A stretch of 64,000 nt of DNA from an uncultured virus (IMG/VR IMGVR_UViG_3300042988_001414) (Duplodnaviria > Heunggongvirae > Uroviricota > Caudoviricetes): the IMG/VR virus record IMGVR_UViG_3300042988_001414; one strand, 5' to 3'. The notes under the pieces were generated by a model. The model was not told where the DNA came from and ran no database searches. It saw only the letters and a list, made by a program, of their open reading frames with translations. The position numbers and the translations under genes were made by a program. Below, piece by piece: positions 30,939 to 47,560 of this stretch (the stretch's first letter is position 1; every line of letters starts with the position of its first letter).

Positions 30939-30958
30939 AAGAACGAACCGGAGGAACC

Positions 30959-31426: not shown

Positions 31427-31522
31427 GACTCGGTAGCTCAGACGGTAGAGCAGTGATGGCGCTCTTTGTTCACCGGAGCGTCGTCACATGGGTCGCAGGT
31501 TCGAGTCCTGCCCGAGTCACCA
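31427..31522 (+). tRNA. tRNA-like RNA with aberrant extended anticodon arm (no assignable anticodon)
   Basis: Acceptor GACTCGG/CCGAGTC + ACCA; D arm GCTC..GAGC; T arm GCAGG-TTCGAGT-CCTGC; 12-bp stem with 11-nt loop in the anticodon position. Confidence 0.8.
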
Positions 31523-32083: not shown

Positions 32084-33144
32084 CATCCGCAATCGACGCA
32101 ACAGCATGGCTCCGCGACATGAAGGCCGCCGAGTCCGACAAGCTTGCGCGCCTCGAGACAGAGGCTGTGCATGACGAGGCCGCACGAGAGGTGCTGGCTG
32201 ACGTGTACGAGGGAGCCGGTCGCAGCAAAGATGCGGCGTTGCTTCGTGGCGAGATCTTCCCACTACCGCCGAAGCGACCGCGCAAGCGTATCGAGAAGCT
32301 TACGAGCACCGAGGAAAACAAAATGCGCGGGTGGGCGCAGCGCTGGATCGAGATTGGGCTACGCCATGGCCCGACTACGGCCATCGACGTGGCACAGTTT
32401 CGGGCTGGGATCTGCGCGGCGTACGAGGCCGCGAAGCTAGCTCCGCCGAAGCGAATCGTGTGGACGACGTCGCCGCTCGCCGCGGTGCTCGCGGGGCCCA
32501 TCGCGATGCATGTGCTGGGCAGCGGAGCGCTGAACGTAGCAGTACCTGGAGCAATCAGGCAGGCCGTGGGCATCGCGGTGCGCGGCGCGGTGGACGTCGC
32601 GGTGGACGTCGCGGTGGACGACGCGGTGAGCGGCGCGGTGGACGTCGCGGTGCGCGATGCGGTGAGCGACGCGGTGAGCGACGCGGTGGACGACGCGGTG
32701 AGCGGCGCGGTGAGCGGCGCGGTGAGCGACGCGGTGGACGACGCGGTGAGCGGCGCCCCATCGGTCATTAGGGACAACTGGTACCGGTACCTAGGAGGCC
32801 AGCCGTGGGTCGGATGGGGATACGGTTATCGGGGACCAGCCTACGTCTCGTTCCTCCAGGACGTGTGCAGACTGCAACTGGCTCCCGCCATCGAGCGAGC
32901 TGCGCGAGCGTATCAGGCGATCTGCCGGTCGTGCTGGTGGCTCTGGCCTCACAGTGACTTCGTGATCGTGGCTCCTCGTCCGATGCGGATCGAGCGTGAC
33001 GCGGATGGTCGGCTGACGCTGGCGGAGTGGCCCGATGGGTCACGTGTCGAGCGTGGCAAGGATGGGACGTATCGGCTCAACGTGGATGTCCGCAAGGTGC
33101 TGGCGATGCTGGGAGGTGAGCGCGAAGGGAAGGAGGGCTCGTGA
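32080..33144 (+). CDS. DUF6745-like protein with internal tetrapeptide repeats
   Basis: YEAAKLAPPKRIVW.TSP; (AVSD/AVDD)n; CWWLWPHSDFVIV.PRP.RIERDADGRL. Confidence 0.65.
   Translation: MTSAIDATAWLRDMKAAESDKLARLETEAVHDEAAREVLADVYEGAGRSKDAALLRGEIFPLPPKRPRKRIEKLTSTEENKMRGWAQRWIEIGLRHGPTTAIDVAQFRAGICAAYEAAKLAPPKRIVWTTSPLAAVLAGPIAMHVLGSGALNVAVPGAIRQAVGIAVRGAVDVAVDVAVDDAVSGAVDVAVRDAVSDAVSDAVDDAVSGAVSGAVSDAVDDAVSGAPSVIRDNWYRYLGGQPWVGWGYGYRGPAYVSFLQDVCRLQLAPAIERAARAYQAICRSCWWLWPHSDFVIVAPRPMRIERDADGRLTLAEWPDGSRVERGKDGTYRLNVDVRKVLAMLGGEREGKEGS
32574..32756 (+). repeat. 12-bp coding tandem repeat (GCGGTGNNNNNC)
   Basis: About 15 units encoding AVxx. Confidence 0.85.
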
Positions 33145-33446
33145 TGTCGAAAGCGAAGCTGGGACGCGTAACAGTGCGGCAGGAGCCGCACGAGAGCGGG
33201 CTGGCGCAGGTGACGCAAAGCCCGCGCGGATTCATCATCTCGGTCAACGGCAAGCGCGTTGGATGCGTGCGTTATGCACGGAGAGTGTTGGGGTCGGGCG
33301 CTCCGTGGTTTTGGTACGCGCACGTCGGGAATAGCGCCGGAGGTCACAAGTCCTTTGCGACGCGCGAAGAGGCGCGCGACGCGTGCGTTGCGTGGGTCAA
33401 GGCGGCGATGAAGGAAGAGGCGCGTGCAAAGGAAGGTGGGACGTGA
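33141..33446 (+). CDS. Hypothetical protein
   Basis: Coupled ORF. Confidence 0.5.
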   Translation: MMSKAKLGRVTVRQEPHESGLAQVTQSPRGFIISVNGKRVGCVRYARRVLGSGAPWFWYAHVGNSAGGHKSFATREEARDACVAWVKAAMKEEARAKEGGT

Positions 33447-33672
33447 AGAACAGCAGGCAGATCACGGCACCGCCAACGACCCGAGACGAGGTTGATATGG
33501 GCGGTTACCAGGGTCCTATCCAGAGACCATTCGAGGTGTGGACCGACTTTGTCGGTTGGTGCTCCGCGTGTCTCCGCGTGGGAGTCGAGACCATCAAGTT
33601 CGGCACACGGGAGCGCTGCGTCGGCATCTGCGGCGACTGCCTCGATCGACTCAACGAAGAGCGAGGTGAGAC

Positions 33673-33885
33673 GTGAGCGCCAACCAGCGACGTCTCGGAG
33701 AGGCGCTGCGCGCGAAGTACGCGCGCGTGTTTGGGATGCGCGTTGACGACGTCGCGTTGGACTTCATTGGCGAGGACAACGCTGAAGTCTACAGCCGTGT
33801 TGACGGCACATTGCCTAGGTGGTCACTCACGCACGCGACAGTCGAAGAGTGGAACATGAAGACTGGGAGCAGGTGGAAAACATGA
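33673..33885 (+). CDS. Hypothetical protein
   Basis: Coupled ORF. Confidence 0.45.
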   Translation: MSANQRRLGEALRAKYARVFGMRVDDVALDFIGEDNAEVYSRVDGTLPRWSLTHATVEEWNMKTGSRWKT

Positions 33886-34214
33886 ACCTCTGTGTACGAT
33901 GCATCTGCGCTTGCGACTGCTGCGCTGACATGCCGGCAATGCGCGAGCGAGCCGAGGGGGCGGAGGCGGTGCGGGACGAAGCGATGGCGAAGTTCGCCAA
34001 CCTCGAGATGCACAGCAAAGTCATTGCGAAGGCCGCTGACAGGATGCGCGCGCACGAGAAAAAACAGGATGAGATGCTTCGTGGCGCGCTATCCCGCGCC
34101 GATAAGGCGGAGCGCCGAGTCCGCGTACTGAAGGCCGAAGTCGCCGAGCTGAAGAAGTGCCTCAAGGCACTTGGCGCTGCATACAGCCAGGTCACGGAAG
34201 GAGGTGACGATTGA
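33882..34214 (+). CDS. Coiled-coil hypothetical protein
   Basis: Coupled ORF. Confidence 0.5.
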   Translation: MNLCVRCICACDCCADMPAMRERAEGAEAVRDEAMAKFANLEMHSKVIAKAADRMRAHEKKQDEMLRGALSRADKAERRVRVLKAEVAELKKCLKALGAAYSQVTEGGDD

Positions 34215-34876
34215 GCGGCAAGAAGTGCTCGCGTTGCGGGGCTCCGTATCGGGATTCGTGCTCATTCGTCGAGTGCGTCATCGAAGACCTTCGAATGCGC
34301 GCCGAGCGAGCGGAGAGGGAGCGTGACGAGGCGCTCGGCGACCGCGAGAAACCGTCCGCATCGGAGCTTTTGCAAAAGGGTGGCGAGTGGCTTGGCGCTG
34401 CGAGGAACTGGCTCAAGTGGCACACGCTCAACGGCGATCGGTTGACGTGGGGAAGCAACGACCAGGTCGAACCACCATTTACGGTCGCCATGATCGAAGG
34501 CTTGGCCGCGGATGTCGCGGTCGCCGCCATGCGGCCGCAGCCGACAGAGAAGCTGGTCGAGACCTGTCTGCTTGCGCGATGGCGCGCGGAGAGCGAACTA
34601 GCGAGCGCGCGCGCGGAGATCGAGCAACTCAAAGAGCGCGCCGAGAAGGCTGAGGCGCGCGTTGTCGAACTTGAAAAAGCTTGTTGCGAATGCGGCCAGG
34701 TGGGGATGGCTGGGGTGTTCTGTCGCGATTGCACCCGCAGCATCAGCCAATTTCGAGAGCGATCCGAGAAGGCCGAACGTGAGGTGAAGAGGCTTTGCAA
34801 GGTGCTCGACACGCTTGGCGGTGACTTGGTGGCGTTGGTTCGCACGTACTTCCCTGGCATGGACGGTGTCCGATGA
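34211..34876 (+). CDS. Coiled-coil hypothetical protein
   Basis: Repeated ERAE(R/K)AE motifs. Confidence 0.55.
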   Translation: MSGKKCSRCGAPYRDSCSFVECVIEDLRMRAERAERERDEALGDREKPSASELLQKGGEWLGAARNWLKWHTLNGDRLTWGSNDQVEPPFTVAMIEGLAADVAVAAMRPQPTEKLVETCLLARWRAESELASARAEIEQLKERAEKAEARVVELEKACCECGQVGMAGVFCRDCTRSISQFRERSEKAEREVKRLCKVLDTLGGDLVALVRTYFPGMDGVR

Positions 34877-35319
34877 TGCGCGAGCGGCACCCCTTCGATC
34901 TCGACGTCTGCGCGAAGTGCGAGACGACGTTCCGTCGCCCGACGCCAGAGATGGTGGGATCGCTGGCGATCAAGCCTGCGCTCAAGGTCGTCTACCGCGT
35001 GGAGATTGGCGGCAAAGCAAAGCACTTCCTGAAGCGGAGTTCTGCATATCAGCGATACGCGTGGAAGAGGCTTGCCGAGAAGTACAAGTGCGACGGCTCA
35101 TGCGATGTTGGCCCAGTCAGTCATGAAGACCCGATCAACGAGGGAAGGTGCTACCGCGGAGTCTGCCATCCGTGGCGAACAAACGACGACTACGGGTATC
35201 GTCGAAATCCTAGCAAGCGGTCCGTGGAGTTTCTTCAGCGGCGCTTCGTTCGCTGGTTGCTCTGGCACGATAAGGAGACGCGCAAGCGCGGACGGTCGCC
35301 AATGAGGGTGTCGACATGA
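34873..35319 (+). CDS. Hypothetical protein
   Basis: Coupled ORF. Confidence 0.5.
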   Translation: MMRERHPFDLDVCAKCETTFRRPTPEMVGSLAIKPALKVVYRVEIGGKAKHFLKRSSAYQRYAWKRLAEKYKCDGSCDVGPVSHEDPINEGRCYRGVCHPWRTNDDYGYRRNPSKRSVEFLQRRFVRWLLWHDKETRKRGRSPMRVST

Positions 35320-35660
35320 AGCACCGATCGATTACCACCACCGAACTGACGCCTGAGGCCCGCATCGATGCGGCTCGACGAGCGATCGCCAACGCGATCG
35401 ATGAACTGATCGAGGCGAAGATCGCCATGGGCGTTGCGTCCAGTGAGTGGGTCGACCAGATGACCAGCCCGTTGGGCAAACGTCGACACCTACGACTGGT
35501 CCGCGAAGGCGTCCTCCAGGCCGTGAAGGACGGGCGACGAAGACTCGTGCGGCGGTCGGACATCAACGCGTACCTGGAGTCTCAGCCCGTTCGGACTCCT
35601 CCTAAGCGAGAGGACGACGTCGATGAGATGATGTTGCGAATCGTCGGAGGTCATCGATGA
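35316..35660 (+). CDS. Excisionase-like HTH protein
   Basis: VREGVLQAVKDGRRRLVRRSDINAYL; overlaps the integrase start. Confidence 0.75.
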   Translation: MKHRSITTTELTPEARIDAARRAIANAIDELIEAKIAMGVASSEWVDQMTSPLGKRRHLRLVREGVLQAVKDGRRRLVRRSDINAYLESQPVRTPPKREDDVDEMMLRIVGGHR

Positions 35661-37267
35661 GCGAGCGAGGTGGAATCAGTGTCCGCAAGGGCCGTGTCTA
35701 CGCGCGCATTCGATTCGGCAAGAACGAGCGCTTCGAAGAGCGCCTTCCGTGGGCCACACCGGACGACGAGGGCGCATCGCGAGAGAGATCGCGTCTCATC
35801 GCCGAGCTCGTGGACCGCCTGGTCTCCGCAGGACGGCGCGACCTGGTGAGACGCACGGCGCGAGAGGCGGCGCAAGCGATGTCGCCACGCGTCCTCGACA
35901 CGATTCGGAAGACGATCGATGTCGTCATCAAGACCCCCGCGCCGCGACAAGACCTGACGACCTTCAAGGATGTCGCTGACGCTTGGGTCAGCGGCGAGCT
36001 CAGGAAGCTCCATCCCGATCATGTGCGATCGAAGGCTGACTTCCGACTCGAGGTCGGGCGACTCAAGCGCTACATCTACCCGCACGTGAAGGACGTCCCC
36101 GTCGTCGCGTTCGAGAAAGCTCACGCCGATCTGGTGATGTCGAAGCTCCCGGCGTCGAGAGTGAAGACGCCTGCCGCGCGGCGACACATTGCTCAGATCA
36201 TGAGCCGCGTGATGAACATGTGCGTTCACCCTCTTGGGCTGATCAAGTCATCACCTCTAGGCAAGGGCTTCCTTCCGATCGTGACGAGGTCGAAGCACTA
36301 CACGTGTCTCTTCCCGAAGGAGGAAGCGAAGCTTCTGGGTTGCGAGGAGGTGGACGAGGCGTTCCGACTGTTCATGGGCATCCTCGACCGTGAAGGGATG
36401 CGAATCAGCGAGCTCGCAGACAGCGAGTGGTGGCAGTGGAACCTTGAGGTCGGCACGTTCACCGCAACGAAGACGAAGGGCGGGGACCCTCGGATGTGGG
36501 CTCTGCGGCCGGACGTTGTCCGAGCGATGAGGATTTGGGCCGAGCGCTTCAGCAAGAAGAAGGCGCGCCCCTTCATTGACGTCACACCAACGCTCGAGGC
36601 GAAGAAGAAGCTGGCCAAGCGGCTGCGCGAAGCGCTGGCTCTTGCTGGAGTCCAGCGTCAGGAGTTGTTCCGCTCGACGCAGCACACCGGCATGCTGCGC
36701 GCGCATGATCTCCGGGCCACGTTCGTCACGGTGTCGCTCGCGGAAGGCCGGCCCGAGGCGTGGATCCGAGACCGAACGGCGCACAAGTCCACGATGATGA
36801 TCGACCGGTACAGGCGCACCGCCAGGCAGTTCGAGGAACTGAATCTCGGGTCGCTGGTCGACCTTGTCGAAGGCCTAGGGTGGGCGATCTCCTGGGTGAT
36901 CCGCTCCGCGGTGGGGGGTGCTGAGACGTCGGATCGTGCTGTTGTTACGAGCAGTTCCGGCGCAGGGATTCGAACCCCGATAGGAGGATCCAAAATCCGC
37001 TCAGGGCATGATCACGAGCCGCGTCAGGCCCAGAATGACGTGGTTTTCGATGCAGGTGACGACCCGCAAGAGCAGGGATCACCCACCCGTCACCCAGGGG
37101 TCAGGCGCCTCCCGGCGGACGTCCAGGAGTACGTCGCGGGTCAGCTTGCCGAGGCCTACCGGGAGGCCATTCGAGGCGAGCAGGTTGCGACGCTGCGACC
37201 TCTCGCACGCGCCGCGACTGCAATCGAGCAGGGGCGGACCCCACGACGTCGCCGAGGTGCACGATGA
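35657..37267 (+). CDS. int: Tyrosine integrase with attP inside its C-terminal region
   Basis: GMRISEL, TKTK, HDLRATF, TAHKS...DRY. Confidence 0.9.
   Translation: MSERGGISVRKGRVYARIRFGKNERFEERLPWATPDDEGASRERSRLIAELVDRLVSAGRRDLVRRTAREAAQAMSPRVLDTIRKTIDVVIKTPAPRQDLTTFKDVADAWVSGELRKLHPDHVRSKADFRLEVGRLKRYIYPHVKDVPVVAFEKAHADLVMSKLPASRVKTPAARRHIAQIMSRVMNMCVHPLGLIKSSPLGKGFLPIVTRSKHYTCLFPKEEAKLLGCEEVDEAFRLFMGILDREGMRISELADSEWWQWNLEVGTFTATKTKGGDPRMWALRPDVVRAMRIWAERFSKKKARPFIDVTPTLEAKKKLAKRLREALALAGVQRQELFRSTQHTGMLRAHDLRATFVTVSLAEGRPEAWIRDRTAHKSTMMIDRYRRTARQFEELNLGSLVDLVEGLGWAISWVIRSAVGGAETSDRAVVTSSSGAGIRTPIGGSKIRSGHDHEPRQAQNDVVFDAGDDPQEQGSPTRHPGVRRLPADVQEYVAGQLAEAYREAIRGEQVATLRPLARAATAIEQGRTPRRRRGAR
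36954..36998 (-). other. attP core: 3' half of tRNA-Gln(TTG)
   Basis: Minus strand GGA-TTTTGGA-TCCTC CTAT CGGGG-TTCGAAT-CCCTG CGCCGGA A; no 5' half present. Confidence 0.8.
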
Positions 37268-37605
37268 GGATCATCTACGAGACGTACTTGACCGTTGCCC
37301 AAGACGACGTGGACCGGATGAACGAGGCCATCGCGTCGTTGCCGGCATCACTGGTCCCGCGTGCTGGCGAGCGCGTTCGGGTCCCGTTCATCGACGTCAA
37401 GCGCGACGGGCACTTTGATCTGGAGGTGGCGAAGGTCACGCACTGCCCGTGCGATAACATCGTGGTCGTCAGACTCACCATCCCATCGGACCATCGGCCT
37501 TGGACCGCAGAGAGCTGGTCGGAGTGGTTTCGGCAACGGCGCGGCGAGCAGCCGAACCATTCGGCCATTCCTAATGGTTCGACGGCGGAGGCGCCTCATG
37601 GTTGA
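37264..37605 (+). CDS. Hypothetical protein
   Basis: Coupled to the int stop. Confidence 0.5.
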   Translation: MRIIYETYLTVAQDDVDRMNEAIASLPASLVPRAGERVRVPFIDVKRDGHFDLEVAKVTHCPCDNIVVVRLTIPSDHRPWTAESWSEWFRQRRGEQPNHSAIPNGSTAEAPHG

Positions 37606-37870
37606 GGGCCCGTTCTTCATCACCCCGCACGCGATCGATCGATACATTGAGCGCGTGCGTCCAGGAATCTCCCGAGGTCAGGCGCTCCGAGATCTCATCG
37701 AGATGAGCAGAGGCGCGCACGTGGTGAAAGAGATCGAGCCGGGTCTGTGGCTGTGGAGAGGCCCGAAGCCGCGTAGGCTTCGTCTTCGGGTGTCGTCCCG
37801 AGAGCCTGGGTTGCCTCAACTGGTGACCGTCATCGAGGCGCATGACGGCCTCCAGGCGAACCGACGATGA
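37598..37870 (+). CDS. Small protein, possible RelE/DUF4258-like fold
   Basis: ITPHAIDRYIER...LVTVI; coupled to csf1. Confidence 0.5.
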   Translation: MVEGPFFITPHAIDRYIERVRPGISRGQALRDLIEMSRGAHVVKEIEPGLWLWRGPKPRRLRLRVSSREPGLPQLVTVIEAHDGLQANRR

Positions 37871-38835
37871 AGGCGAGTCATCTGATCTGGACGGGAGCAG
37901 GGCGGCCATCTCCGTGCGAGACCAACGGCGACCCGATCCCGGCGCGTGGCCGTGGAGCCCCGTGTGCCGCTTGCGGTGAGCCTGGCACGTTCCGCCTTCG
38001 AGAGGCCATCAGCGACAACTTCACGACCGTGAAGAACGGGTCGCGTGCGTGGCCGTTCGGCGGCTCGGACGTCTGCGCGGCGTGCGTGTTTGCGTGCAAG
38101 ACCTTGGCGCTACGACTTGCGATCTCGTTCTCGAGAGAGGACGGCGTGTGGTTCATTGGGACGCGGCCGCTGCCTGGTCTCCCGTGGTCGCGACCCGATG
38201 CACTGAGCGCGATCCTGGCGCCACCGAAGCCGCCGTTCGTCGCGATGTGGCCTGCGTACGGCATCGATCACGGCGGCGAGTCGAACCTGGACCGCGCTTG
38301 GTGGCCCGGTTCGACGCCGCACCCAAACCCGATCGTGAAGCTACAGAGCAAGCATGTGGCGATCTACGCTCGCGTCGCGACGTCCCGCGATCGCTACCCG
38401 ATCCAGATCGATGACGTGCATGACGTCATCGTCGACGTGGATCTCTGGTCGCGGCTGCGTGTCGTCTGCGGCGTGCTACTGACTGAGCTCCGCGCTGGCG
38501 GCGTCGGTGCGAACGACGCACGGACGGCCCTCGTCACGCTACGCGCCCCGCTTGGTACGCCGAGCCGTGTGGCCGCGCATTGGCCCAGCCTGACCGCGCC
38601 GCTGAGGCCGCACCATGGATCGGTGTGGTGGCCACACTTCGTTTCGCTACTCGACATGCCTGCACTGAAGAAGGAGAACGCTGATGGAACGACCGACCGT
38701 AGTGCTCGACCAGTCCCACGTTGGGAAGACCGTGAAGGAGGCGCGCCGAGTGCTCTCGTACCTGCTTCGGGCGATGAAGAAGCGCGTCGATGCGAGCGCG
38801 ATCGGAAGGGAGAGATTCAGGGGTCTCTCTTCTGA
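37867..38835 (+). CDS. csf1: Type IV CRISPR-associated Csf1 (Cas8-like)
   Basis: CAACG...SDNFT...SDVCAAC Zn finger; PPKPPFV; QSKH; position in the operon. Confidence 0.75.
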   Translation: MKASHLIWTGAGRPSPCETNGDPIPARGRGAPCAACGEPGTFRLREAISDNFTTVKNGSRAWPFGGSDVCAACVFACKTLALRLAISFSREDGVWFIGTRPLPGLPWSRPDALSAILAPPKPPFVAMWPAYGIDHGGESNLDRAWWPGSTPHPNPIVKLQSKHVAIYARVATSRDRYPIQIDDVHDVIVDVDLWSRLRVVCGVLLTELRAGGVGANDARTALVTLRAPLGTPSRVAAHWPSLTAPLRPHHGSVWWPHFVSLLDMPALKKENADGTTDRSARPVPRWEDREGGAPSALVPASGDEEARRCERDRKGEIQGSLF

Positions 38836-40141
38836 GTTGAGCAACAGCCTTGTGCCGCTCGTCGTCAGCGAGAAGAGCACGCTTGCGTTTGGCAAGGCGC
38901 TGGCGAACCGCTTCGGGATCGACCTCACCGGCGGCGACACGGAGTGGGGGCCCGTAGAGGCGTGGCTCCCTGAGGGTCGGATCCGGTGGGACCGCGCTCT
39001 TGCTGCACTCGACTACCGTCACGTTCGCCTGGTCGTTCACGAGAACCCAGCGTTCCTTGCGACGTTCGCCTGCGATCGAGAATGCGAGGGAGAGGACAGC
39101 ATCTTCGCCTCGTTCCCAGAGCCCGTCGGTGACGGAGCGTACAGAGCGACGCTGCCAAGGGGACTCATCCAGCCACGCAACCACGCCACGGTGTGGACGC
39201 TGACGAGTCCGATGGCACACGGCGCGGACGAGAAGAGCGGCAACGTGAACCTGTTCCGGCGGCATCGCGTGGTGAATCCGCTGACTGGCGAGCAGTCGTT
39301 CGTTCCGTTCATGAGCGGCAACGCCGTACGCGGTGTGTGGCGAGACATGGTGATGGCTCGCTTCTGCGAGCTCGTGGGGGTGAGCCCGAAGGCGCTCCCA
39401 TCGTCACGCGTCCACGCACTCTTCTCCGGCGGTGGAGTGGAGAAGGGCGCCGACGGAGCCAGCGTGAACCTGCGCGTGCGCGACCAAGCACGTGAGATGT
39501 GTCCTGCGTGGGATCTCTTCGCTGGATGCACGGACCAGCAAATCATGCAGGGCCGAATCCGCGTGCACGATGCCGTACTCGTCTGCGCCGAGAACGATTG
39601 GCTCGTCTTCCCTCATCTGAACCCCGGTGTCGAGATGACGGCGGAGGCTCTGGCCACGTTCTCTGACTCGCTGCCGGAGGCGGCGGAGCTGACCCAGCTT
39701 CGACTCGGCACGAGGCACGCGCACAAGGACTATGCTGGGAGCGAGGGGGCCCAGATGATCTTCAACACCGAGGTCGTCCTTGGTGGAGCTCAGTTCGTCC
39801 ACTCGTTCCAGATCTACGGCATTGACGGCGTCTCACCCATCACAGCGGCTTGCTTGGCTGACCTCGTGACGAACTTCCGCGACTGGGGCGTGGTCGGAGC
39901 CTCGAATGCGCGCGGTCTTGGGCTCATCGCCTTCGACGCGTACCAGCCCGGACCAGGCACCCCCACGTTGCCCGATCCGTCGATCTACCTGGCGCACGTG
40001 GACCGCAACAAGGACGCCATGCGTGAGTGGCTGATGCGGGTCGGTGACGAGTCACCGCCGAAGGCGGAACGTCCGGCCAAAGGCACACGCACACGCCAAC
40101 TCCCGCCGACGCTGAAGGAGCCGTCCAGTGACGTGGGTTGA
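38684..40141 (+). CDS. csf2: Csf2 (Cas7) with N-terminal helical Cas11/Csf4-like domain
   Basis: TLTSPMAHG, VPFMSGNAVRG, LFSGG, LFAG, GRIRV, GASNARGLG; extra ~140-aa helical N-terminus. Confidence 0.85.
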   Translation: MERPTVVLDQSHVGKTVKEARRVLSYLLRAMKKRVDASAIGRERFRGLSSELSNSLVPLVVSEKSTLAFGKALANRFGIDLTGGDTEWGPVEAWLPEGRIRWDRALAALDYRHVRLVVHENPAFLATFACDRECEGEDSIFASFPEPVGDGAYRATLPRGLIQPRNHATVWTLTSPMAHGADEKSGNVNLFRRHRVVNPLTGEQSFVPFMSGNAVRGVWRDMVMARFCELVGVSPKALPSSRVHALFSGGGVEKGADGASVNLRVRDQAREMCPAWDLFAGCTDQQIMQGRIRVHDAVLVCAENDWLVFPHLNPGVEMTAEALATFSDSLPEAAELTQLRLGTRHAHKDYAGSEGAQMIFNTEVVLGGAQFVHSFQIYGIDGVSPITAACLADLVTNFRDWGVVGASNARGLGLIAFDAYQPGPGTPTLPDPSIYLAHVDRNKDAMREWLMRVGDESPPKAERPAKGTRTRQLPPTLKEPSSDVG

Positions 40142-40907
40142 GACGTCCGCTGCGTGGCGAGCTCGCTGCGAACGCTGGCTTCCGAGTCGGGTAGAGCCTG
40201 TCCAAATCCGCGTGTGGCTGCGAGCTCCGCTCGCATGGGACCCCTACGACGGAATCACGATCGAGGGCGCGCTACAGTCCGTGGTCGTTACGAGGGAGTC
40301 ATCGCGACTTCCCGACGACGCGTTCGATGGGGCACCGAGTGACTTCTTCGCTGACGTCCCGATCCCAATCGCCGATCAGGAGGTCTACGGCATCAAGATC
40401 GCCCTCGTCTCGTGGGCGATCCCAGCCACCAACATCGAGACCGTTCGACGCTTGCGCCGTCGGTCCAGAGTGGACCTGTTCCGACCCGCCGGAGGTCGAG
40501 GACTCTTGGTCGTGTCCGGTGGATCGTTCAAAAATACTGACGTACCTGTGTCCACGATGACGACTCCGTTCGTTGACTTCTTCGCGCACGGTGACGCCGA
40601 GAAGATCGCTGACCTTGCCCGAGACCTCGGATCTCTTGGTCGTGCACGTGGCGGAGGGCTTGGAGCCATCCACGGTGTGGAGGTCGACACCGGATGCCCG
40701 ATGCGCCACCCGTTGAGTCATCACCGCAGACCTCAGCGCACCATCCCGGTGCTCGATGGGACCAACGCCGCAGATCGATTTGAGGTCGGATCGTACGAGG
40801 TCCGCGAGCGTCAGCTCCGCGCGCCATACTGGCACCTCGGCGGACCTCGAGCGCTCTGCGCGGTTCCGACACCAGTCGCATTCACGGAGGACGCATGCGC
40901 CGCTTGA
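40128..40907 (+). CDS. csf3: Csf3 (Cas5-like)
   Basis: IRVWLRAP..., GSFK, FFAHGDAEKI, LGRARGGGLGAI, RTIP, RAPYWH. Confidence 0.8.
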   Translation: MTWVETSAAWRARCERWLPSRVEPVQIRVWLRAPLAWDPYDGITIEGALQSVVVTRESSRLPDDAFDGAPSDFFADVPIPIADQEVYGIKIALVSWAIPATNIETVRRLRRRSRVDLFRPAGGRGLLVVSGGSFKNTDVPVSTMTTPFVDFFAHGDAEKIADLARDLGSLGRARGGGLGAIHGVEVDTGCPMRHPLSHHRRPQRTIPVLDGTNAADRFEVGSYEVRERQLRAPYWHLGGPRALCAVPTPVAFTEDACAA

Positions 40908-41530
40908 TACGTGGTCCGCTTGAGCAACGGCTCGCGGTGGCGGACCTTACGACGCCCGAAGGACTGGCCACGTTCAGAGGCCTTCTCGAGGGTCTCTCGG
41001 TCTCGGTCGTCTACAGCGACCCGCCGTGGAACCCTGGGAATGAGAAATACTGGCGACGCTACGCCGGGGCGAGTGTGCCGACGAGCTACGGCAAGCTGCT
41101 CGACGGTTGGATCGCGTGCGTTGTGGCCTGCCGCCCGGAGCACGTCTTCGTCGAGCAGTCAGTCAACCAAGCTCACAAGGCCATGCTGGTCGACGCGATC
41201 GGCCGGTGCCCAGCGTGGTCGCTGCCGCTGATTGAAGAGTGGGTCGTTGAGTACGGATCTCCCAAGAGGCCGAACGCGCTCCTCCACTTCGGCCGCAACA
41301 AGAGCACCACCGATCCTTCGGGGATGTCTGGCGTCACGATGACGAGGACGGCGCTGATGGGCATCGACATCCCATCCCGCACCGCCATCGCCGATCCGTG
41401 CATGGGGCTTGGGACTACCTCACGCGTAGCTCACATGTTGGAGACCTCGTGCGTCGGGACTGAGTTGAACGAGAAGCGTCTTGATGTGACGATCGACCGA
41501 CTGCGGAAGATGGGGTACGTGGAGGCATGA
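40895..41530 (+). CDS. Amino-methyltransferase-like (DPPW) protein
   Basis: VVYSDPPW; ADPCMGLGTT; GTELNEKR. Confidence 0.75.
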   Translation: MRRLIRGPLEQRLAVADLTTPEGLATFRGLLEGLSVSVVYSDPPWNPGNEKYWRRYAGASVPTSYGKLLDGWIACVVACRPEHVFVEQSVNQAHKAMLVDAIGRCPAWSLPLIEEWVVEYGSPKRPNALLHFGRNKSTTDPSGMSGVTMTRTALMGIDIPSRTAIADPCMGLGTTSRVAHMLETSCVGTELNEKRLDVTIDRLRKMGYVEA

Positions 41531-42390
41531 TCGCGCTCGGGCTCTCGGCTGAGGAGAAACGCCGTGCGGTGACGGACTACTGCGCCGAGCACCGCATCCA
41601 GCGCGTGGTCGCGTTGAGCCCGTCGAAGTACCGCGTGGTGTTCGACCACGACCAGGTGCGCCACACGGAGTGGGCGGAGATCATCCAGTACAAGCACTTC
41701 TACCCAATCCTCCAGGAGACCGACCGGCACACGCTGGTCGTCGTCAACGAGTGCCTGAGGACGAGCGACCGAAACTGCCTCACGTACAACTGCATCCGGC
41801 ACTTCCTCAACCAAACGCCACACGCCATCGTGTTTCAGCGGTTCCCCATTCTCGAGACGTTCGATGACGTGATGATCCTGGTCGACTTCGCGACCAATAG
41901 CCGATGGAAGCGTGACCGCTTCGATCGCCGCTTTCTCGATGGTGTCGATGTTCGAGGCACCGTCCAGCCACTGACTCTTGAGCGCGTGCACGTGCCGACG
42001 TCAGACCAAGATCATGCGGCCTACGCCAAGGCACGCGCCGAGCTCTTCGCCAACATCGGCGCTCGCGACCCGCACACGATCCCGCGCACGCTGCACCTCT
42101 TGTCCGGCAAAGCCAAGCTCCGTGTCGTGAATCCTGGCGCGCGCTACGTCGGTCGGAACAACCGCTTCTCACTCGAGAACCTGGTCACGTTCGACGAAGA
42201 GTCGTTCGGTGGGACCGAGACGGTCTTCGAGTTCTGCCACGGCATGCTGGCCTTCAGCGACTTCGTCGCGCTCTCCGGCCAGACCAAGGTGACCGCACTC
42301 GTCTCCGAACTGAAGGTCGACCGGTGGTACGCGGAACGCGCCGAGACATGGATGAAGGAGGTGGCTCGTGCCTACGCAGCGCTACTCTGA
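41527..42390 (+). CDS. Hypothetical protein, degenerate helicase-like
   Basis: LVVVNECLR resembles a decayed Walker B; no Walker A seen. Confidence 0.55.
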   Translation: MIALGLSAEEKRRAVTDYCAEHRIQRVVALSPSKYRVVFDHDQVRHTEWAEIIQYKHFYPILQETDRHTLVVVNECLRTSDRNCLTYNCIRHFLNQTPHAIVFQRFPILETFDDVMILVDFATNSRWKRDRFDRRFLDGVDVRGTVQPLTLERVHVPTSDQDHAAYAKARAELFANIGARDPHTIPRTLHLLSGKAKLRVVNPGARYVGRNNRFSLENLVTFDEESFGGTETVFEFCHGMLAFSDFVALSGQTKVTALVSELKVDRWYAERAETWMKEVARAYAALL

Positions 42391-43495
42391 CGTTGACGTT
42401 CTGAGCGCCGCACGAAAGCGCATGGCGTTCATCTTCGACTCGTTCTCGGAGATCATCGTTTCGATCTCCGGTGGGAAGGATTCCACGGTGCTCGCTCATA
42501 TTGCGTTGCAAGAGGCGAAGCGCCGCGACCGACGCGTTGGCTTCTTCTTCCTCGATGAGGAGGTCTGCTACCAGAGCAGCGTCGACCAGGTCGAGTACCT
42601 GATGACCCTCGAGCCAGCGCACACCAAGCCGCTCTGGCTTCAGGTGCCGTTTTTCCTGACCAACGCGACCAGCCTCACCGAGGGCCAGCTCCAATGCTGG
42701 GAGCCTGGCAAGCACAAGGTGTGGATGCGATCCAAGCGAGCCGGATCGATCCAGCACAAGCCGTGGGACGTGGCGACCGAGACCGTGCGCAATCGCGCCA
42801 AGGGCTTCGGCTTCTACGATGCGATCGAGAACTTCGAGCGCAGCTTCTCCGGCGCTGCCTTCCTTGTTGGCTTGCGTGCCGCCGGCGAGTCGCCGAACCG
42901 TTGGCGCGCGGTGGTGAAGAACCCCGTGACGGTCGGCGGAGAGACGACCTACTGGGGCACTCGCAAGGGCGAGAACACTGCGCTCTATCCGATCTACGAC
43001 TGGAACTTCCACGACGTGTGGCGCTACATCCACGAGCACGGCGTGCGCTACTCGAAGATCTACGACTTCCAGTTTCGCAAGGGGTACCCGATCCACGAGA
43101 TGCGTGTGAGCTCGCTCATTCACGAGCGTTCGTTCAAGAGCATCTGTGACCTCCCCGAATTCGAGCCGAAGACGTACGCTCGACTGCTGAAGCGCATCAA
43201 GGGGATCGCGCTCGCACAAGAGACGGGCAAGTCTGCCAAGCTGTTTGCTGCGCGGAAGCTTCCTCACCAGCACGCGACGTGGGCAGCGTACCGGGACTTC
43301 CTCCTTGCGACGCATCCGAGTCAGGAGCACGCCGCCATGTTTCGAGCGCGATTCGCTCGCCATCTCGACAACGAGTTCGTGGCGCGCCAGCAATGCCGGC
43401 AGCTGCTTCTCAACGACTACGAGAACAACCTTCCCATCACCAACGACGAAGACCCGCGGGCGAAGTTGCTGCGGTACTACGAGGGCGTCCTATGA
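42368..43495 (+). CDS. IbrA-like PAPS-reductase/PP-loop protein
   Basis: VSISGGKDS, FLDEE, VGLRAAGESPNR, YPIYDW...DVW, MRVS. Confidence 0.85.
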   Translation: MPTQRYSDVDVLSAARKRMAFIFDSFSEIIVSISGGKDSTVLAHIALQEAKRRDRRVGFFFLDEEVCYQSSVDQVEYLMTLEPAHTKPLWLQVPFFLTNATSLTEGQLQCWEPGKHKVWMRSKRAGSIQHKPWDVATETVRNRAKGFGFYDAIENFERSFSGAAFLVGLRAAGESPNRWRAVVKNPVTVGGETTYWGTRKGENTALYPIYDWNFHDVWRYIHEHGVRYSKIYDFQFRKGYPIHEMRVSSLIHERSFKSICDLPEFEPKTYARLLKRIKGIALAQETGKSAKLFAARKLPHQHATWAAYRDFLLATHPSQEHAAMFRARFARHLDNEFVARQQCRQLLLNDYENNLPITNDEDPRAKLLRYYEGVL

Positions 43496-44004
43496 AGATC
43501 TCGATGCCGTGCCTGGAGACGAAGCTCGTGCCACGCGACTCGATCGTGGCCAACAACTACAACCCGAATTTCGTTTCACCCGACAAGATGGACCTTCTTC
43601 GACAGAGCATCGTCGACAACGGGTTCTGCTTCCCCATCGTGACGATCTGGGACGATGACCTCGAGAAGTACGTCATCGTCGATGGCTTCCACCGCTTCAC
43701 GATCTGCTCTCCCGAGTGGCTGGACATCGAGCTGGTGCCCGTCGTCGTCCTTGAGCACGACATCACCAAGCGGCTCGTTGCGACGGTCCAGTTCAATAAG
43801 GCTCGTGGAACGCACGCCGTGGATTTGGATGCGGACCTCATTCGAACGCTCATCCAACAAGGCATGACCGATGAGCAGGTCTCGACGCATCTCGGGATCG
43901 ATCTCGACACCGTGCACCGGTACAAGCAGGTCAGCGGCGTCGCATCGCTCTTCGCAAACGTCGAGTACTCCGCCAGCTGGTCGATGGTCGAGGATGCCGG
44001 CTGA
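43492..44004 (+). CDS. IbrB-like ParB/Srx-domain protein
   Basis: ANNYNPN, SIVDNGF, IVDGFHR, NKARGTH. Confidence 0.85.
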   Translation: MKISMPCLETKLVPRDSIVANNYNPNFVSPDKMDLLRQSIVDNGFCFPIVTIWDDDLEKYVIVDGFHRFTICSPEWLDIELVPVVVLEHDITKRLVATVQFNKARGTHAVDLDADLIRTLIQQGMTDEQVSTHLGIDLDTVHRYKQVSGVASLFANVEYSASWSMVEDAG

Positions 44005-44809
44005 GCCGCTCCTCCGACCGGAGGACGACGCGGAGTGGTCGCGCTGGCAGATCATCGCTCGCCAGCACGCCCGCACACGCAAGCACGCATCTCGTGTCGA
44101 CCGCGCCAAGCGCATCGTCGACGAATGCCTCACGCGAGCGCCCAACGCCGCGGTGATGTGGTCCGGAGGGAAGGACTCGACCGTGTTGACTCATCTCGTA
44201 TGCGTCGAGATGGGCCGAGCACTTCCAGTGTTCAGCGAGAAGGACGATCTCGACTTCCCCGGCGAACGCGCGTACGTCGAGACGTGGGCCGCACGTTGGA
44301 AGATCGATCTCCGCGTGCTGGTACCTGACGTGTCGCCGCTGGCGTGGGTTGAGGCTCACCGCGCCGAGCTCGTGGCGGGAGACGATCTCCACTCACGCGC
44401 CGCTGGCCTGAGCAAGGCTTGCTTCTACGAGGTGGTCGAGCGCGCCACCGAGACCTTCGACGCGGTCCTCTTGGGGCTTCGGTCTGAGGAGAGCCGCGGG
44501 CGGCGAATGAACCGCGCGCTGCGCGGACCGACGTACCAGAAGACGAGCGGCCAGTGGGTGTGCTCGCCGCTGGTCGACTGGTCTGGGATCGACGTGATGG
44601 CGTACCTCGCCGCGAGAGACATCGACCCGTTGCCGCTCTATCGGTGCATCGCGTTCGCGCACGCGCGCGAGCCGTGGAGAGTCCGCAAGTCGTGGTGGCT
44701 CCCAGGTCAGAGCTCGAATCACGGGCAGATGGCGTGGCTCCGGCACTACTGGCCATCACTCTACGAACTCGCCCGCGAGCTAGTCATCGGTGCCCAGCGG
44801 ATGTCGTGA
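43994..44809 (+). CDS. CysH-like PAPS reductase family protein (type IV-B associated)
   Basis: MWSGGKDS, LGLRSEESRGR, PLVDWSGIDVMAY. Confidence 0.85.
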   Translation: MPAEPLLRPEDDAEWSRWQIIARQHARTRKHASRVDRAKRIVDECLTRAPNAAVMWSGGKDSTVLTHLVCVEMGRALPVFSEKDDLDFPGERAYVETWAARWKIDLRVLVPDVSPLAWVEAHRAELVAGDDLHSRAAGLSKACFYEVVERATETFDAVLLGLRSEESRGRRMNRALRGPTYQKTSGQWVCSPLVDWSGIDVMAYLAARDIDPLPLYRCIAFAHAREPWRVRKSWWLPGQSSNHGQMAWLRHYWPSLYELARELVIGAQRMS

Positions 44810-45196
44810 GTCCGTCCGACGTCTCCGCGTCGGCCGCAGGCCCGCCGCGGCAAGCCACTCGTCCACATCGTCGCTCGCGACCGAAGTCGACTCGGTCCTC
44901 GGCTGAGGATCGCGGCGGCGCGCAGCCTCCCACGCGGCGCGTGTGCATCGCCAGATGGCGCCGTCGCGATGGGAGCCTACGACACGACCTGACGCGCAAG
45001 TCTCACGAAATACGCGTCGACTCACCCCAGGCGGCAGATCAACAGAGGAGTACCCCGCGCCACCGCCGACCATCACGAGGACAGGAGATCGGCACGCACC
45101 GCAGACTACGGCCCCACGATCCACGACCAACGGGGCCGTCGTGCAACGGCACGATGCACGCAACTCTGCCGCATCTGATCTCAGGATCCTTGACAT
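44780..45196 (-). CDS. Excisionase-like small protein (true start probably internal)
   Basis: SRRVFRETCASGRVVG...IWRCTRAAW...DDVDEWL. Confidence 0.5.
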   Translation of the reverse strand: MSRILRSDAAELRASCRCTTAPLVVDRGAVVCGACRSPVLVMVGGGAGYSSVDLPPGVSRRVFRETCASGRVVGSHRDGAIWRCTRAAWEAARRRDPQPRTESTSVASDDVDEWLAAAGLRPTRRRRTDSRHPLGTDD

Positions 45197-45264
45197 AACG
45201 AGATGTTACCAACCTCCGCCAAGGGCGCCCCAAAAAAACATCCCAACAATCGACATGCGTGGGC

Positions 45265-45292
45265 TTGCGCTGGGCACCCAGCGAGTTAGATT
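45265..45292 (+). promoter_or_regulatory. Putative sigma70 promoter with operator palindrome
   Basis: TTGCGC-16 bp-TAGATT enclosing CGCTGGG-CA-CCCAGCG. Confidence 0.5.
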
Positions 45293-45350
45293 GTCTTGTG
45301 TTGAGGCGAGACACCTCAACAAACCACCACCACCACCAAGGAGACACGTC

Positions 45351-45602
45351 ATGATCATCACCGCCAAGTTCGCCTCTGTTTGCCCCTGCTGCTCCACCCG
45401 CATCACCGTCGGCGAGAAGGTTGAGTGGTCGAAGGGGGAGAAGGCCCGCCACGTGCGATGCGCGGGCAAGCCTGCGGTCGCGAGCACCGCGCGCCGGTCG
45501 TACGCGCGCCGCTCTGGCGCTGGGTGGGCCGCGCCGGTCCCTGGGTACTCTAGCTGGTGTACCGACTCGCCGAGCTGCGGCTGCTACGACTGCGCGTCCT
45601 GA
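45351..45602 (+). CDS. Small Cys-rich hypothetical protein
   Basis: AAGGAG RBS; AKFASVCPCC...H..C. Confidence 0.6.
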   Translation: MIITAKFASVCPCCSTRITVGEKVEWSKGEKARHVRCAGKPAVASTARRSYARRSGAGWAAPVPGYSSWCTDSPSCGCYDCAS

Positions 45603-45678
45603 CTTCGGTGTCGCGCTCGGGGCCCTGAGGGGCCTCGACCGCGGCGTCGAAGCCGCCAACCAAAAGAAGAGAACCACC

Positions 45679-46101
45679 ATGACCACCACCGAAAAACGAA
45701 CTATCCGCCTCAGTGACTCCGCGCCCGTGAAGATCTCCACCACGGAATGGGAGGTCGTCGCGACGAGCGAGGACCACGACAATCAACACAGGAGCCAGGC
45801 GAACACGCTGTGGACCATCGAGGTGCTCGAACACCGAGACGGCCGGCGCATCGTCGCGGGCCAAGCGGTCGCAGGCCCTGGCGGGAAACCGATCACGTGG
45901 CGCAATCAATACGCCGGGTGGCTCGTGCCTGCCGTGACCGATCCGACCCGCATGCGTCAGCCGGCGGACGGCGGGCCGCTAACCTCAATGCACCCCGACG
46001 ATGCTGGGACCATCCGAGCGATCCGCCGAGTCGGTGGCGTCATCGGACGCGAGGATCTCGCTACCGAGTGCATCGGCTCGCTGCCCGCCACTGAGATCTG
46101 A
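45679..46101 (+). CDS. Hypothetical protein
   Basis: TIRLSDSAPVKI...HRDGRRIV...CIGSLPATEI. Confidence 0.6.
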   Translation: MTTTEKRTIRLSDSAPVKISTTEWEVVATSEDHDNQHRSQANTLWTIEVLEHRDGRRIVAGQAVAGPGGKPITWRNQYAGWLVPAVTDPTRMRQPADGGPLTSMHPDDAGTIRAIRRVGGVIGREDLATECIGSLPATEI

Positions 46102-46178
46102 CACGACGTCTTCGACGCGCGCTCCCAACGGGGCGCGCGTAGCGGGCGCCGTGTTGGCGAGACGAGGAGGTTGAGACG

Positions 46179-46367
46179 ATGACAAAGCAAGAGGCAATCG
46201 CGCGACTCCGAGAGGCCGCGGAGGACGAGGACATGAGCGACGAGGCCGAGGAGCTGTTCGAGGCGATGTTCGAACGCAAGCCCGACCCCGATGACGGTGA
46301 CTTGGGCGAGCTCATCTCTCACGCTTACGCAGCGCTGCATGCGCACGATCGCGCGAACGGAGGATGA
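46179..46367 (+). CDS. Small acidic hypothetical protein
   Basis: GAGGAGG RBS. Confidence 0.55.
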   Translation: MTKQEAIARLREAAEDEDMSDEAEELFEAMFERKPDPDDGDLGELISHAYAALHAHDRANGG

Positions 46368-46368
46368 G

Positions 46369-46569
46369 ATGGCAGCGAAGAAAAAGACCAAAGACCCGCC
46401 CAAGAAGGCGTCCGGCGAAAACATCGGCGAGTGGCAACGTCGGACGGAGCGAATCGTCCTGCGAGTGCAGCCGTCCGTGGCTGAGCGAATCCGGCTAGAC
46501 GCAGCGCTGCGCGGTCAGACGATCAGTTCCTACGTGAGTGATCTGGTGATCCAGGAAGACGAGCCATGA
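46369..46569 (+). CDS. Ribbon-helix-helix-like DNA-binding protein
   Basis: RIVLRVQPSVAERIRLDAALRGQTISSYVSDLV. Confidence 0.65.
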   Translation: MAAKKKTKDPPKKASGENIGEWQRRTERIVLRVQPSVAERIRLDAALRGQTISSYVSDLVIQEDEP

Positions 46570-46871
46570 AGCAAGGAACCATCTTCATTCTCACGTCGGG
46601 ATGCTACTCCGACTTCGGCATCTACGAGGTCATGCGTGCGAAGGCCGACTTTGACTTCGACGACGTCGTGGCGACCGTGCCGAAGGACTCTCACTCCATC
46701 AGGAAGCTTGTGGACAGGCTTCTCGAGACGGGACTCGCGGAGTCCGTATCCGCGCCGGCGATTTGGCTTGGTGAGTATGGCAGCATCGAGACTCCGACGG
46801 AGTCCTTCGAGGTCACCATGAGGAAGCGCTATCCGAGCCCGGACCGGTGGGTTCGACAAGGACGAGAATGA
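46566..46871 (+). CDS. Hypothetical protein
   Basis: TSGCYSDFGI; coupled. Confidence 0.55.
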   Translation: MKQGTIFILTSGCYSDFGIYEVMRAKADFDFDDVVATVPKDSHSIRKLVDRLLETGLAESVSAPAIWLGEYGSIETPTESFEVTMRKRYPSPDRWVRQGRE

Positions 46872-47560
46872 ACCTGACCGACCTCTACAACCTGACCTTC
46901 GCCGCGGCGCAGGCTTCGAACGAACCGCTGACGCGAGAGAACGTCGAAGCGTGTCAGGTGCTCGCCGATGTGTTGTTGGAGCACGGTCTGATCTCGCCTC
47001 ACGTGCCGAACGCCGTCGGAGTCACAGCGGCGACCACCGATGGCGTTCCGAATCCATGGAGAGCCACCGTATTCTCCACGACCGACGACGAGGAGATGTC
47101 CCGTCGACAATCCATTCGGGGCAACGAGCTCGCCGCGCGACGCTGGGCGCGTCAGCAATTCGCGCTGCTCTGGAAGGCATGCGTGAGTCCAAGAAACCCG
47201 CGCGACCTTCGTGGATCGATCGAGCTGTTCGACGAGCACGGCGTGACCATCGCCAAACTGGAGGCCTCATTTCAGGTACGAAGTCTGGCGTATCCCGACC
47301 GAAAAGATCTGGTCTTGGATCTTGTCTGGGCCGAAGACCTCGTCGTCGAGAAGACGCAGTCGATCTTCATGGTCGCGTTCCGGATCAACGATTGTGACTT
47401 CGACGTCACGAGTCGGAGGCCTGCTTCGGAGGTCATGAGCAACACGACGCCGACAGCCTTCTCGGTGGTTCGGTTCGATTCGAGAACGCTGACTGGCACC
47501 ACCACTTTGGGCGACCTCATCGCTGTGCGCGCTTCGATGCCGTCGACCGAGATGCCGTGA
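46868..47560 (+). CDS. Hypothetical protein
   Basis: Coupled ORF. Confidence 0.55.
   Translation: MNLTDLYNLTFAAAQASNEPLTRENVEACQVLADVLLEHGLISPHVPNAVGVTAATTDGVPNPWRATVFSTTDDEEMSRRQSIRGNELAARRWARQQFALLWKACVSPRNPRDLRGSIELFDEHGVTIAKLEASFQVRSLAYPDRKDLVLDLVWAEDLVVEKTQSIFMVAFRINDCDFDVTSRRPASEVMSNTTPTAFSVVRFDSRTLTGTTTLGDLIAVRASMPSTEMP

Follow-up and report, generated by a model that had tools for sequence, protein, structure and literature searches.

The stretch of DNA analysed here (the window) comprises 64,000 of the 78,839 bases of the source contig of IMG/VR record IMGVR_UViG_3300042988_001414, an uncultured virus of the Caudoviricetes; the absences reported below hold for the window only. The window carries an operon that is very probably a variant of the subtype IV-B CRISPR-Cas effector, in which Cas11 forms the N-terminal part of Csf2. 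This assignment concerns the identity of the locus, not its mechanism. Every defining feature of IV-B that was tested is found, with Cas11 as a fused domain.

Type IV-B is described as a widespread CRISPR-Cas subtype for which the function, the RNA partner and the role of the CysH-like protein are not known (PMC8175902; PMC11656645). According to PMC8175902 and PMC7038947, it consists of csf1, csf2, csf3, cas11 and a cysH-like gene, and is devoid of an array and of cas6. PMC7038947 places it on plasmids and sometimes in prophages, PMC10848311 reports it from an archaeal virus and several lytic phages, and PMC11656645 from some phages and prophages. An array-less IV-B operon carried by a phage has thus been published before and is not new. 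The only type IV fusion mentioned in the available text of these papers is that of Csf3 and Csf1 in IV-E (PMC7038947). The literature consulted yielded nothing relevant that links type IV-B or Csf1 to the sliding clamp or DnaN; the fusion of Cas11 and Csf2 was not the object of a dedicated search.

Core csf genes and the Cas11-like domain of Csf2

Three open reading frames (ORFs) of the + strand overlap in the order csf1 (37867-38835), cas11::csf2 (38684-40141) and csf3 (40128-40907). The product of csf1 (322 amino acids, aa) is a Cas8-like large subunit, matched by the PADLOC profile typeIV_Cas8 (PDLC01721) with E 3.8e-13 on residues 24-135. The four-cysteine cluster near its N-terminus consists, in the family alignment, of the invariant C33 and the nearly invariant C36, C70 and C73; the core conserved among 77 relatives stops near residue 266. 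By sequence, Csf1 has no relative among solved structures at E 1 or better. The 485-aa product of cas11::csf2 is matched by typeIV_Cas7 (PDLC01572) with E 4.9e-43 on residues 170-453. It consists of a Cas11-like helical domain (residues ~1-145; 38684-39118), a linker and a Cas7/Csf2 RAMP domain (residues ~170-453; 39191-40042). By sequence it matches the solved IV-B Csf2 of 7JHY (E 1.5e-9). The AlphaFold2 (AF2) model of the whole protein has a predicted local distance difference test score (pLDDT) of 82; Foldseek pairs it with IV-A and IV-B Csf2 chains at E 1e-9 to 5e-9 and also with type III Csm3 chains. The protein is about 26% identical to plasmid-borne IV-B Csf2, found in 32 plasmid records, of which 18 are of Rhodococcus and one is the JS623 plasmid. 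Finally, the 259-aa product of csf3 is Cas5-like: typeIV_Cas5 (PDLC01727) matches with E 1.6e-21 over almost the whole profile, phrog_34599 with E 3.4e-8, and the IV-A1 Csf3 chain 8rc3_F weakly, with E 0.032.

The first-pass annotation of this DNA, made from the letters alone, had described overlapping csf1-csf2-csf3-like genes just downstream of int and had read them as a phage-borne, array-less type IV-B operon. This reading stands. Profiling with Cas hidden Markov models, which it had proposed as a check, gives type IV Csf1, Csf2 and Csf3 matches in PADLOC together with the structural match of Csf2; the integrase gene lies at 35657-37267, 7JHY is the closest solved relative, and no array is found in the window. 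The fused Cas11 and the cysH-like gene of the operon had been overlooked, and a second RAMP module that it had proposed is not found, as described below.

For comparison we used 57 viral csf2 loci, 13 with a long form of csf2 as in the window and 44 others, which were obtained by an alignment-based scan of viral contigs; a query with a single protein had given none. The synteny of csf1, long csf2 and csf3 is kept in 12 of the 13 long-form loci.

Several points weigh against the IV-B assignment. For Csf1, Csf3 and RAMP, matches to the curated models of NCBIfam and Pfam stay far under the cut-offs (TIGR03114, E 6.5e-4 and 19.4 bits against a cut-off of 140 on Csf1; TIGR03116, E 0.015; PF03787, E 0.09). 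The assignment is dependent on the PADLOC profiles and on structure. The low scores agree with the identity of only ~26% between this Csf2 and its plasmid-borne IV-B counterparts. Furthermore, an array may lie in the part of the contig beyond the 64,000 bases of the window.

The Cas11 component is the point where the locus departs from the canonical arrangement. The window and the long-form loci leave no place for an independent cas11 ORF between csf1 and csf2. Instead, the RAMP domain encoded by the Csf2 ORF is preceded by about 170 residues, and the N-terminal 145-165 residues form the Cas11-like part. When folded alone, this part gives a confident helical domain (AF2 pLDDT 88.9). A fold search (not Foldseek) against 48,161 representative chains of the PDB returns 7jhy_h, which is Csf4 (Cas11), with Z 8.6 and a root-mean-square deviation of 3.6 over 114 of 143 residues; it is the sole chain at Z of at least 5, and the runner-up has Z 3.9. 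Further Cas11-type chains (8fcj_J, 6thh_C, 7zoq_B, 8bmw_A and 8h67_M) are found lower in the ranking, at Z 2.7-3.8.

The N-terminal extension is shared, in conserved form, by 93 metagenomic clusters (430-530 aa) and the 13 long-form IMG/VR viral loci, and residues 16-51 are conserved across the family. A profile of the domain, searched against 1.84 billion representatives, gives 47 matches, and 37 of them are proteins of 452-578 aa that begin with the domain. The canonical, separate cas11 between csf1 and csf2 was confirmed in the Skermania phage SPI1, a Gordonia plasmid and the JS623 plasmid. Judging from the modelled fold, the position in the operon and the lack of a separate gene, we consider it likely, with good confidence, that Cas11 is fused to the N-terminus of Csf2.

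Against the fusion stand, above all, the sequence comparisons. BLASTP of the N domain against the Cas11 proteins of SPI1 and Gordonia gives E 0.29 and 13, the Cas11 profiles of PADLOC do not match it, hhalign against 20 presumed Cas11 ORFs gives a probability of 0.45%, Foldseek against the PDB finds nothing at E 0.001 or better, and no match among those of the 1.84-billion-representative search is tied to a canonical cas11. Ten of the 47 profile matches are shorter (116-328 aa, six of them 116-152 aa) and may be fragments or stand-alone forms. In addition, Z 8.6 falls in the range where, by the search's own caution, arrangement alone can make helical bundles match.

The start of csf2 is assigned to ATG 38684, with GAAGGAG 7 nt upstream. 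The overlap with the final 152 nt of csf1 is real, since this GAAGGAG precedes the start and the early residues are conserved and lie within the modelled fold. A later TTG start at 38837, which would avoid the overlap with csf1, was rejected, since residues 16-51 show conservation and belong to the fold modelled for Cas11.

Another set of viral loci (L016, L018-L020, L023, L025, L028, L031-L034, L036, L037, L042, L044, L048 and L053) has csf2 frames of 404-435 codons and no separate ORF of 110-170 aa that ends at the csf2 start. Some of these frames may be Cas11-Csf2 fusions with an unrelated N-domain sequence; extension to the longest ORF in G+C-rich DNA can also give this appearance, and SPI1 and the Gordonia plasmid are examples of it.

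As for the other parts of CRISPR-Cas systems, the local repeats of the window are tandem units of 5, 10, 12 and 15 nt or coding repeats, and none is a CRISPR array. The genes cas6, dinG, cas1 and cas2 have no match among 71 window ORFs scanned with PADLOC, and Pfam reveals no Cas family in 76 window ORFs except the sub-threshold RAMP match on Csf2. The first-pass annotation had noted the same absences, and the PADLOC, Pfam and repeat scans bear it out. It had also placed a second, unrelated RAMP module in this phage; none is found among the 62 other ORFs scanned with PADLOC or the 52 + 15 ORFs scanned with Pfam, eleven of these 15 lying outside the csf1-to-cysH operon and ORFs under ~80 aa being mostly outside the scans.

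Among known systems the nearest is the IV-B locus of the Mycobacterium sp. JS623 plasmid pMYCSM02 (PDB 7JHY; described in PMC7937560 and PMC8175902), which shares Csf1, Csf2 and Csf3, the Cas11 fold, a CysH-like neighbour and the lack of an array and of cas6. However, cas11 of JS623 is a separate 162-aa gene and the locus is plasmid-borne, whereas in the window the Cas11-like domain is part of Csf2 and the carrier is a phage. The window Csf1 is also ~70-100 residues longer than that of JS623, with a tail ending in QGSLF, and four extra genes lie between csf3 and cysH.

The cultured Skermania actinophage SPI1 (KR011061.1) carries a row of csf1, cas11, csf2, csf3 and a PAPS-reductase-like gene (Orf40-Orf44, 32609-36242 of the record), all five annotated as 'hypothetical protein'. 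PADLOC matches the first four with E 1.9e-28, 5.9e-15, 1.2e-66 and 2.1e-36, respectively, and the fifth is matched by tblastn with E 7e-13. SPI1 thus shows IV-B in a bona fide phage; its cas11 is separate, and its Csf2 is 32% identical to that of the window over 130 residues.

The IV-B locus of archaeal viruses of the 'Fuxiviridae', as far as it is described in PMC10848311, likewise has a virus-encoded effector and a CysH-like gene beside csf3, without an adaptation module. It differs in the archaeal carrier, a two-repeat mini-array and a separate Cas11, and no clamp tail is mentioned in the available description. A precedent for Cas11 and Cas7 in one polypeptide is given by the type III-E Cas7-11 (gRAMP; PDB 7zoq), and residues 289-400 of 7zoq_B are a weaker fold match of the window N domain (Z 3.4). 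However, Cas7-11 is one giant multi-Cas7 protein, guided by CRISPR RNA (crRNA) and nucleolytic, unlike the single Cas11-Cas7 unit of the window, which presumably polymerises.

The C-terminal tail of Csf1 and the sliding clamp

Beyond its conserved core, Csf1 continues with a C-terminal tail (residues ~267-322; 38665-38835, + strand), which is variable, gap-rich in the alignment and modelled with low confidence. The tail ends in QGSLF (38818-38832), and its DNA doubles, in the second frame, as the first 51 codons of cas11::csf2. The bacterial beta-clamp-binding consensus is QL[SD]LF, and beta-clamp clients with terminal motifs of this type include Pol II, Pol IV, MutS and Hda. Like them, the window Csf1 has a Q..LF-type peptide, putatively clamp-binding, at the extreme C-terminus after a flexible, variable linker. 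We know of no Cas protein among the beta-clamp clients.

Such ends recur in the family. Q..LF is found at the C-termini of 16 of 78 Csf1 proteins and a looser pattern in 24 of 78, QLSLF and QLRLF being common, while the looser pattern is found in none of 120 control proteins of the clamp family. QLSLF itself is present on the Csf1 relatives of loci L005, L014, L037 and L051. In three other loci (L009, L011 and L013) Q..LF is located on Csf2 instead, and 3 of 93 members of the Csf2 family have it; none of the loci examined has it on both subunits. That the motif moves between Csf1 and Csf2 is an argument for selection on the complex as a whole.

When all six-frame ORFs of at least 100 aa from the window and the 57 viral loci were considered, 12 of 2,557 ended in Q..LF: six Csf1, three Csf2, one DNA methyltransferase and two proteins without assignment. 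Three of the six Csf1 are from distant lineages with a separate cas11 or another gene order. Assuming that ~110 of the 2,557 ORFs are csf1 or csf2, we estimate the enrichment in Csf subunits as about hundred-fold; the sequences bearing the motif are related, and the counts are not independent events.

The phage encodes a beta sliding clamp of its own (DnaN homologue; 29510-30640, + strand; PF00712, PF02767 and PF02768; phrog_947, E 1.3e-61), which is a candidate docking partner of the Csf1 tail. In a complex prediction, the clamp and Csf1 residues 273-322 reach a score of 0.51, whereas the best of three controls scores 0.00; at least 67% of contacts are common to the runs, and the partner pLDDT is 42 or more. 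The predictor itself rates this result as weak support and reports no interface.

There are reasons for caution about clamp binding. Of 157 solved complexes, 116 attain the pass mark of the complex score, as do 2 of 215 mismatched pairs; in the range up to 0.60, only 18 of the 157 pass, together with both of these mismatched pairs. Complexes of clamps with peptides are already among the solved ones, and the predictor's pass may reflect memory. QGSLF deviates from the consensus at the second position. Finally, 47 of 78 Csf1 relatives are without such a tail, and several loci lack the motif on any subunit.

Q..LF ends are also seen near csf2 on the DNA methyltransferase at 6492-7448 of L048 and on the small unassigned proteins at 5496-5834 of L023 and 5997-6377 of L025; clamp-type tails may extend to companions of the Csf complex. 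By eye, in about half of the long Csf2 proteins (P0002-P0093) a linker rich in Lys and Arg leads to an acidic or glycine-rich tip whose last residue is F or L (for example ...EETF, ...EGAL, ...GGAL). These tips are distinct from Q..LF and might serve as another docking motif.

Neighbouring genes and the phage carrier

The operon reads, with neighbours overlapping or abutting, as a small ORF, csf1, cas11::csf2, csf3, a DPPW methyltransferase, a 287-aa protein, an IbrA-like, a ParB-like and a cysH-like gene. The last of these (CasCysH, 271 aa; 43994-44809, + strand) has the PP-loop SGGKDS and matches PF01507 (PAPS_reduct) with E 3.8e-15. Its start is placed at ATG 43994 within the ORF 43871-44809, because relatives align only from there. 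The first-pass annotation had cited linkage to cysH-like genes as a general IV-B trait, which holds, and had passed over this gene itself.

The CysH-like protein is 28% identical over ~250 residues to the protein beside the JS623 IV-B locus (E 2e-19). Its relatives adjoin csf genes in 39 of the 57 viral loci (11 of the 13 long-form and 28 of the 44 others; tblastn, E of 1e-5 or lower). The CysH-like protein of IV-B is distinguished from true PAPS reductases by a kept PP-loop and the lack of their C-terminal catalytic cysteine motif, of the ECGLH type. On inspection of the translation, no such ending is seen in the window protein. Neither the CysH-like nor the IbrA-like protein has a match among solved structures by sequence at E 0.01 or better.

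The small ORF at the head of the operon (90 aa; 37598-37870, + strand) overlaps the start of csf1 with its stop, and tblastn finds its relatives near csf genes in 5 of the 13 long-form loci; it has no Pfam match, and an Atlas search gave only unnamed clusters (score 0.90). Downstream of csf3 lies the gene of a DNA methyltransferase-like protein (211 aa; 40895-41530, + strand) with a DPPW motif and a C-terminal S-adenosylmethionine-binding motif. It is matched by phrog_67 (E 4.8e-10) and, below the cut-off, by PF01555 (E 5.4e-5), and relatives are found in 3 of the 13 long-form and 3 of the 44 other loci. The following 287-aa protein (41527-42390, + strand) has no match in Pfam, NCBIfam (above noise), PADLOC or PHROG. 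Its relatives, of 45-51% identity, lie immediately before the IbrA-like gene in L006, L009, L018 and L036, and an Atlas search with a model of pLDDT 0.50 gave a weak lead to N lobes of the SNF2 type.

The IbrA-like PP-loop protein (375 aa; 42368-43495, + strand) matches PF01507 (E 1.4e-11), PF11922 (DUF3440; E 1.8e-8) and phrog_2302 (E 1e-78). The ParB-like (IbrB-like) protein (170 aa; 43492-44004, + strand), whose gene is hidden by longest-ORF calling, has a DGFHR motif and a C-terminal helix-turn-helix. PF02195 (ParB_N) matches it with E 3.8e-4 and 20.9 bits against a cut-off of 26.3, and HTH_23 with E 0.003. Its relatives are found in 7 of the 13 long-form and 5 of the 44 other loci, and both proteins are present, mostly adjacent, in 12 of the 57. 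We take IbrA and IbrB to be the names of such a pair of a PAPS_reduct and DUF3440 protein with a ParB-like one. A scan of 33000-47800 for promoters and terminators was uninformative, with no promoter-like element against 1.4 expected and 7 terminator-like against 7.4 expected.

The G+C content is 62-70% across the window, and phage genes are found throughout it. The large terminase (907-2535, - strand), DnaB helicase, primase, baseplate J and endolysin mark a tailed phage; RusA, P2-I-like tail proteins, a LexA-like repressor, SbcCD and a replication initiator with 12-nt iterons are encoded as well. The phage is temperate, since it has a tyrosine integrase gene (35657-37267, + strand; PF00589 (Phage_integrase), E 1.5e-9; phrog_1 integrase, E 7.5e-20).

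The closest named cellular relatives of the phage clamp are from Polyangiaceae, Myxococcales and Labilithrix (47-49% identity), and among 185,579 species genomes the long Csf2 form is found on only two contigs, both of one Myxococcota metagenome-assembled genome. Hence, judging from these sequence relatives, the host is probably a myxobacterium (Myxococcota). Megablast of 36000-46000 against 50,697 phage records gave no match. The only sequencing runs that carry the locus are two DNA runs from one freshwater sample, probably the one from which the DNA came, with no RNA runs listed.

Several other features of the phage were recorded. An IrrE/ImmA-type metalloprotease is encoded at 16449-17111 (Peptidase_M78; capP-like in PADLOC, E 1.2e-10) and an HTH_3 regulator at 30677-31234 (capH-like, E 1.1e-6); a protein with a LexA DNA-binding domain (15027-15521, - strand) is reported beside them. 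The three genes are probably a lysogeny switch. At 11140-11640, inside the replication-initiator-like ORF (10282-12060, - strand), a 12-nt unit (TTGCTTGAGCAC and variants) is repeated in tandem about 19 times, in two blocks; the copies are probably origin iterons.

The first-pass annotation had also listed several candidate small RNAs. The repeats and the tRNA-like element are real, but 6-17 kb separate them from the operon, to which nothing ties them. G-rich 5-nt arrays of the GGCNN type, with apparent periods of 5, 10 and 15, are located on the + strand at 26590-26830 and 28117-28644; one follows sbcC and the other overlaps the ORF 28184-28657, which has no family match. A 35-nt repeat occurs in three copies (20801-20835, 20994-21028 and 21689-21723) of 86-100% identity to the reference copy. 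The copies contain an imperfect palindrome and are spaced by 193 and 695 nt, around the start of a dUTPase gene and upstream of 21788, and look more like operator or promoter elements than like CRISPR repeats. The tRNA-like element at 31427-31522 (93-96 nt) scores 50.2 bits with the Rfam tRNA model, and ARAGORN assigned no anticodon to it.

Proposed mechanism and alternative explanations

We propose the following mechanism as the most likely one. By analogy with the JS623 complex, the Csf proteins would assemble on RNA as a Cascade-like filament. Each Cas7 would bring its own fused Cas11, thus fixing the Cas11:Cas7 ratio at 1:1. The tail of Csf1 would then dock the ribonucleoprotein on a beta sliding clamp, of the phage or of the host, at replicating DNA. 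The enzyme acting there on nucleic acid would be the CysH-like PP-loop protein, perhaps joined in this phage by the methyltransferase and the IbrA/ParB-like pair. That the tail tethers the ribonucleoprotein to clamps on replicating DNA and that the CysH-like protein and its neighbours act there is a tentative proposal, to which we give somewhat less than an even chance. Its extension to IV-B in general is more doubtful still: the subtype might be a clamp-tethered, RNA-scaffolded machine at the replication fork of its own element, docked on the beta clamp by the tail of Csf1 or Csf2, with the CysH-like enzyme (in this phage along with the methyltransferase and the IbrA/ParB-like pair) chemically marking or protecting the new DNA or an RNA bound to it, and not an immune effector. 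Such a fork-riding machine would explain the absence of an array, the obligatory CysH and the location on phages and plasmids.

Two other explanations accept the IV-B complex and give it a different task. It might be an RNA-guided silencer in the competition of mobile elements, similar to IV-A, which uses host crRNAs or a phage guide to block the transcription or replication of rivals; the clamp tail would then merely position the complex at target replication forks. The Cascade-like architecture and the match of the Csf2 and Cas11 folds to the RNA-bound 7JHY filament are in line with this. However, the window has no array, mini-array or cas6, the solved IV-B complex is reported to have bound heterogeneous RNA rather than the co-expressed crRNA (PMC8175902), IV-B is described as negatively correlated with other CRISPR systems in hosts (PMC7038947), and the strict CysH-like partner is left unexplained, so that we regard the silencer as unlikely. 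About half as probable as the silencer, in our estimate, is a counter-defence role, in which the complex is a sponge for host crRNAs or small RNAs or sequesters the clamp, disarming immunity or redirecting replication. A phage-borne, array-less locus would fit it, a clamp-binding-type tail could compete with host clamp clients, and neutralisation of crRNAs is raised by Pinilla-Redondo et al. (PMC7038947). The same authors judge it unlikely, as too complex (PMC7038947), and a machine of five proteins with a conserved PP-loop enzyme exceeds the needs of a sponge.

The remaining explanation concerns the parts themselves: the N domain of Csf2 would be an unrelated helical domain, Cas11 having been lost in this clade as in IV-A, and Q..LF would not be clamp-binding. 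The missing sequence link to Cas11 and Foldseek match, the position of Z 8.6 in the caution zone for helical folds and the weak complex score speak for it. They are opposed by the rank of 7jhy_h, alone atop 48,161 chains (Z 8.6 versus 3.9) with most of the domain covered, by the several further Cas11-type chains in the same list of fold matches, and by the position of the domain, exactly where cas11 lies in the SPI1, Gordonia and JS623 loci. The concentration of Q..LF in Csf subunits, hundred-fold by our estimate, and its shift between Csf1 and Csf2 point the same way. We thus consider the unrelated domain improbable, only slightly less so than the sponge, and retain Cas11 as the N-terminal part of Csf2.

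The fusion, the tail and the neighbours do not change the classification, and the locus remains IV-B. A natural Cas11-Cas7 fusion would fix the ratio of the subunits and simplify reconstitution of the complex. Neighbours of the DNA-modification type (methyltransferase, IbrA-like, ParB-like) recurrently travel with the operon. Across phage lineages, tails of the clamp-binding type are strongly concentrated in Csf subunits, and they suggest that the system acts at replicating DNA. If the proposed tethering to clamps is true, the system would be a replication-coupled device for marking or protection rather than one of adaptive immunity.

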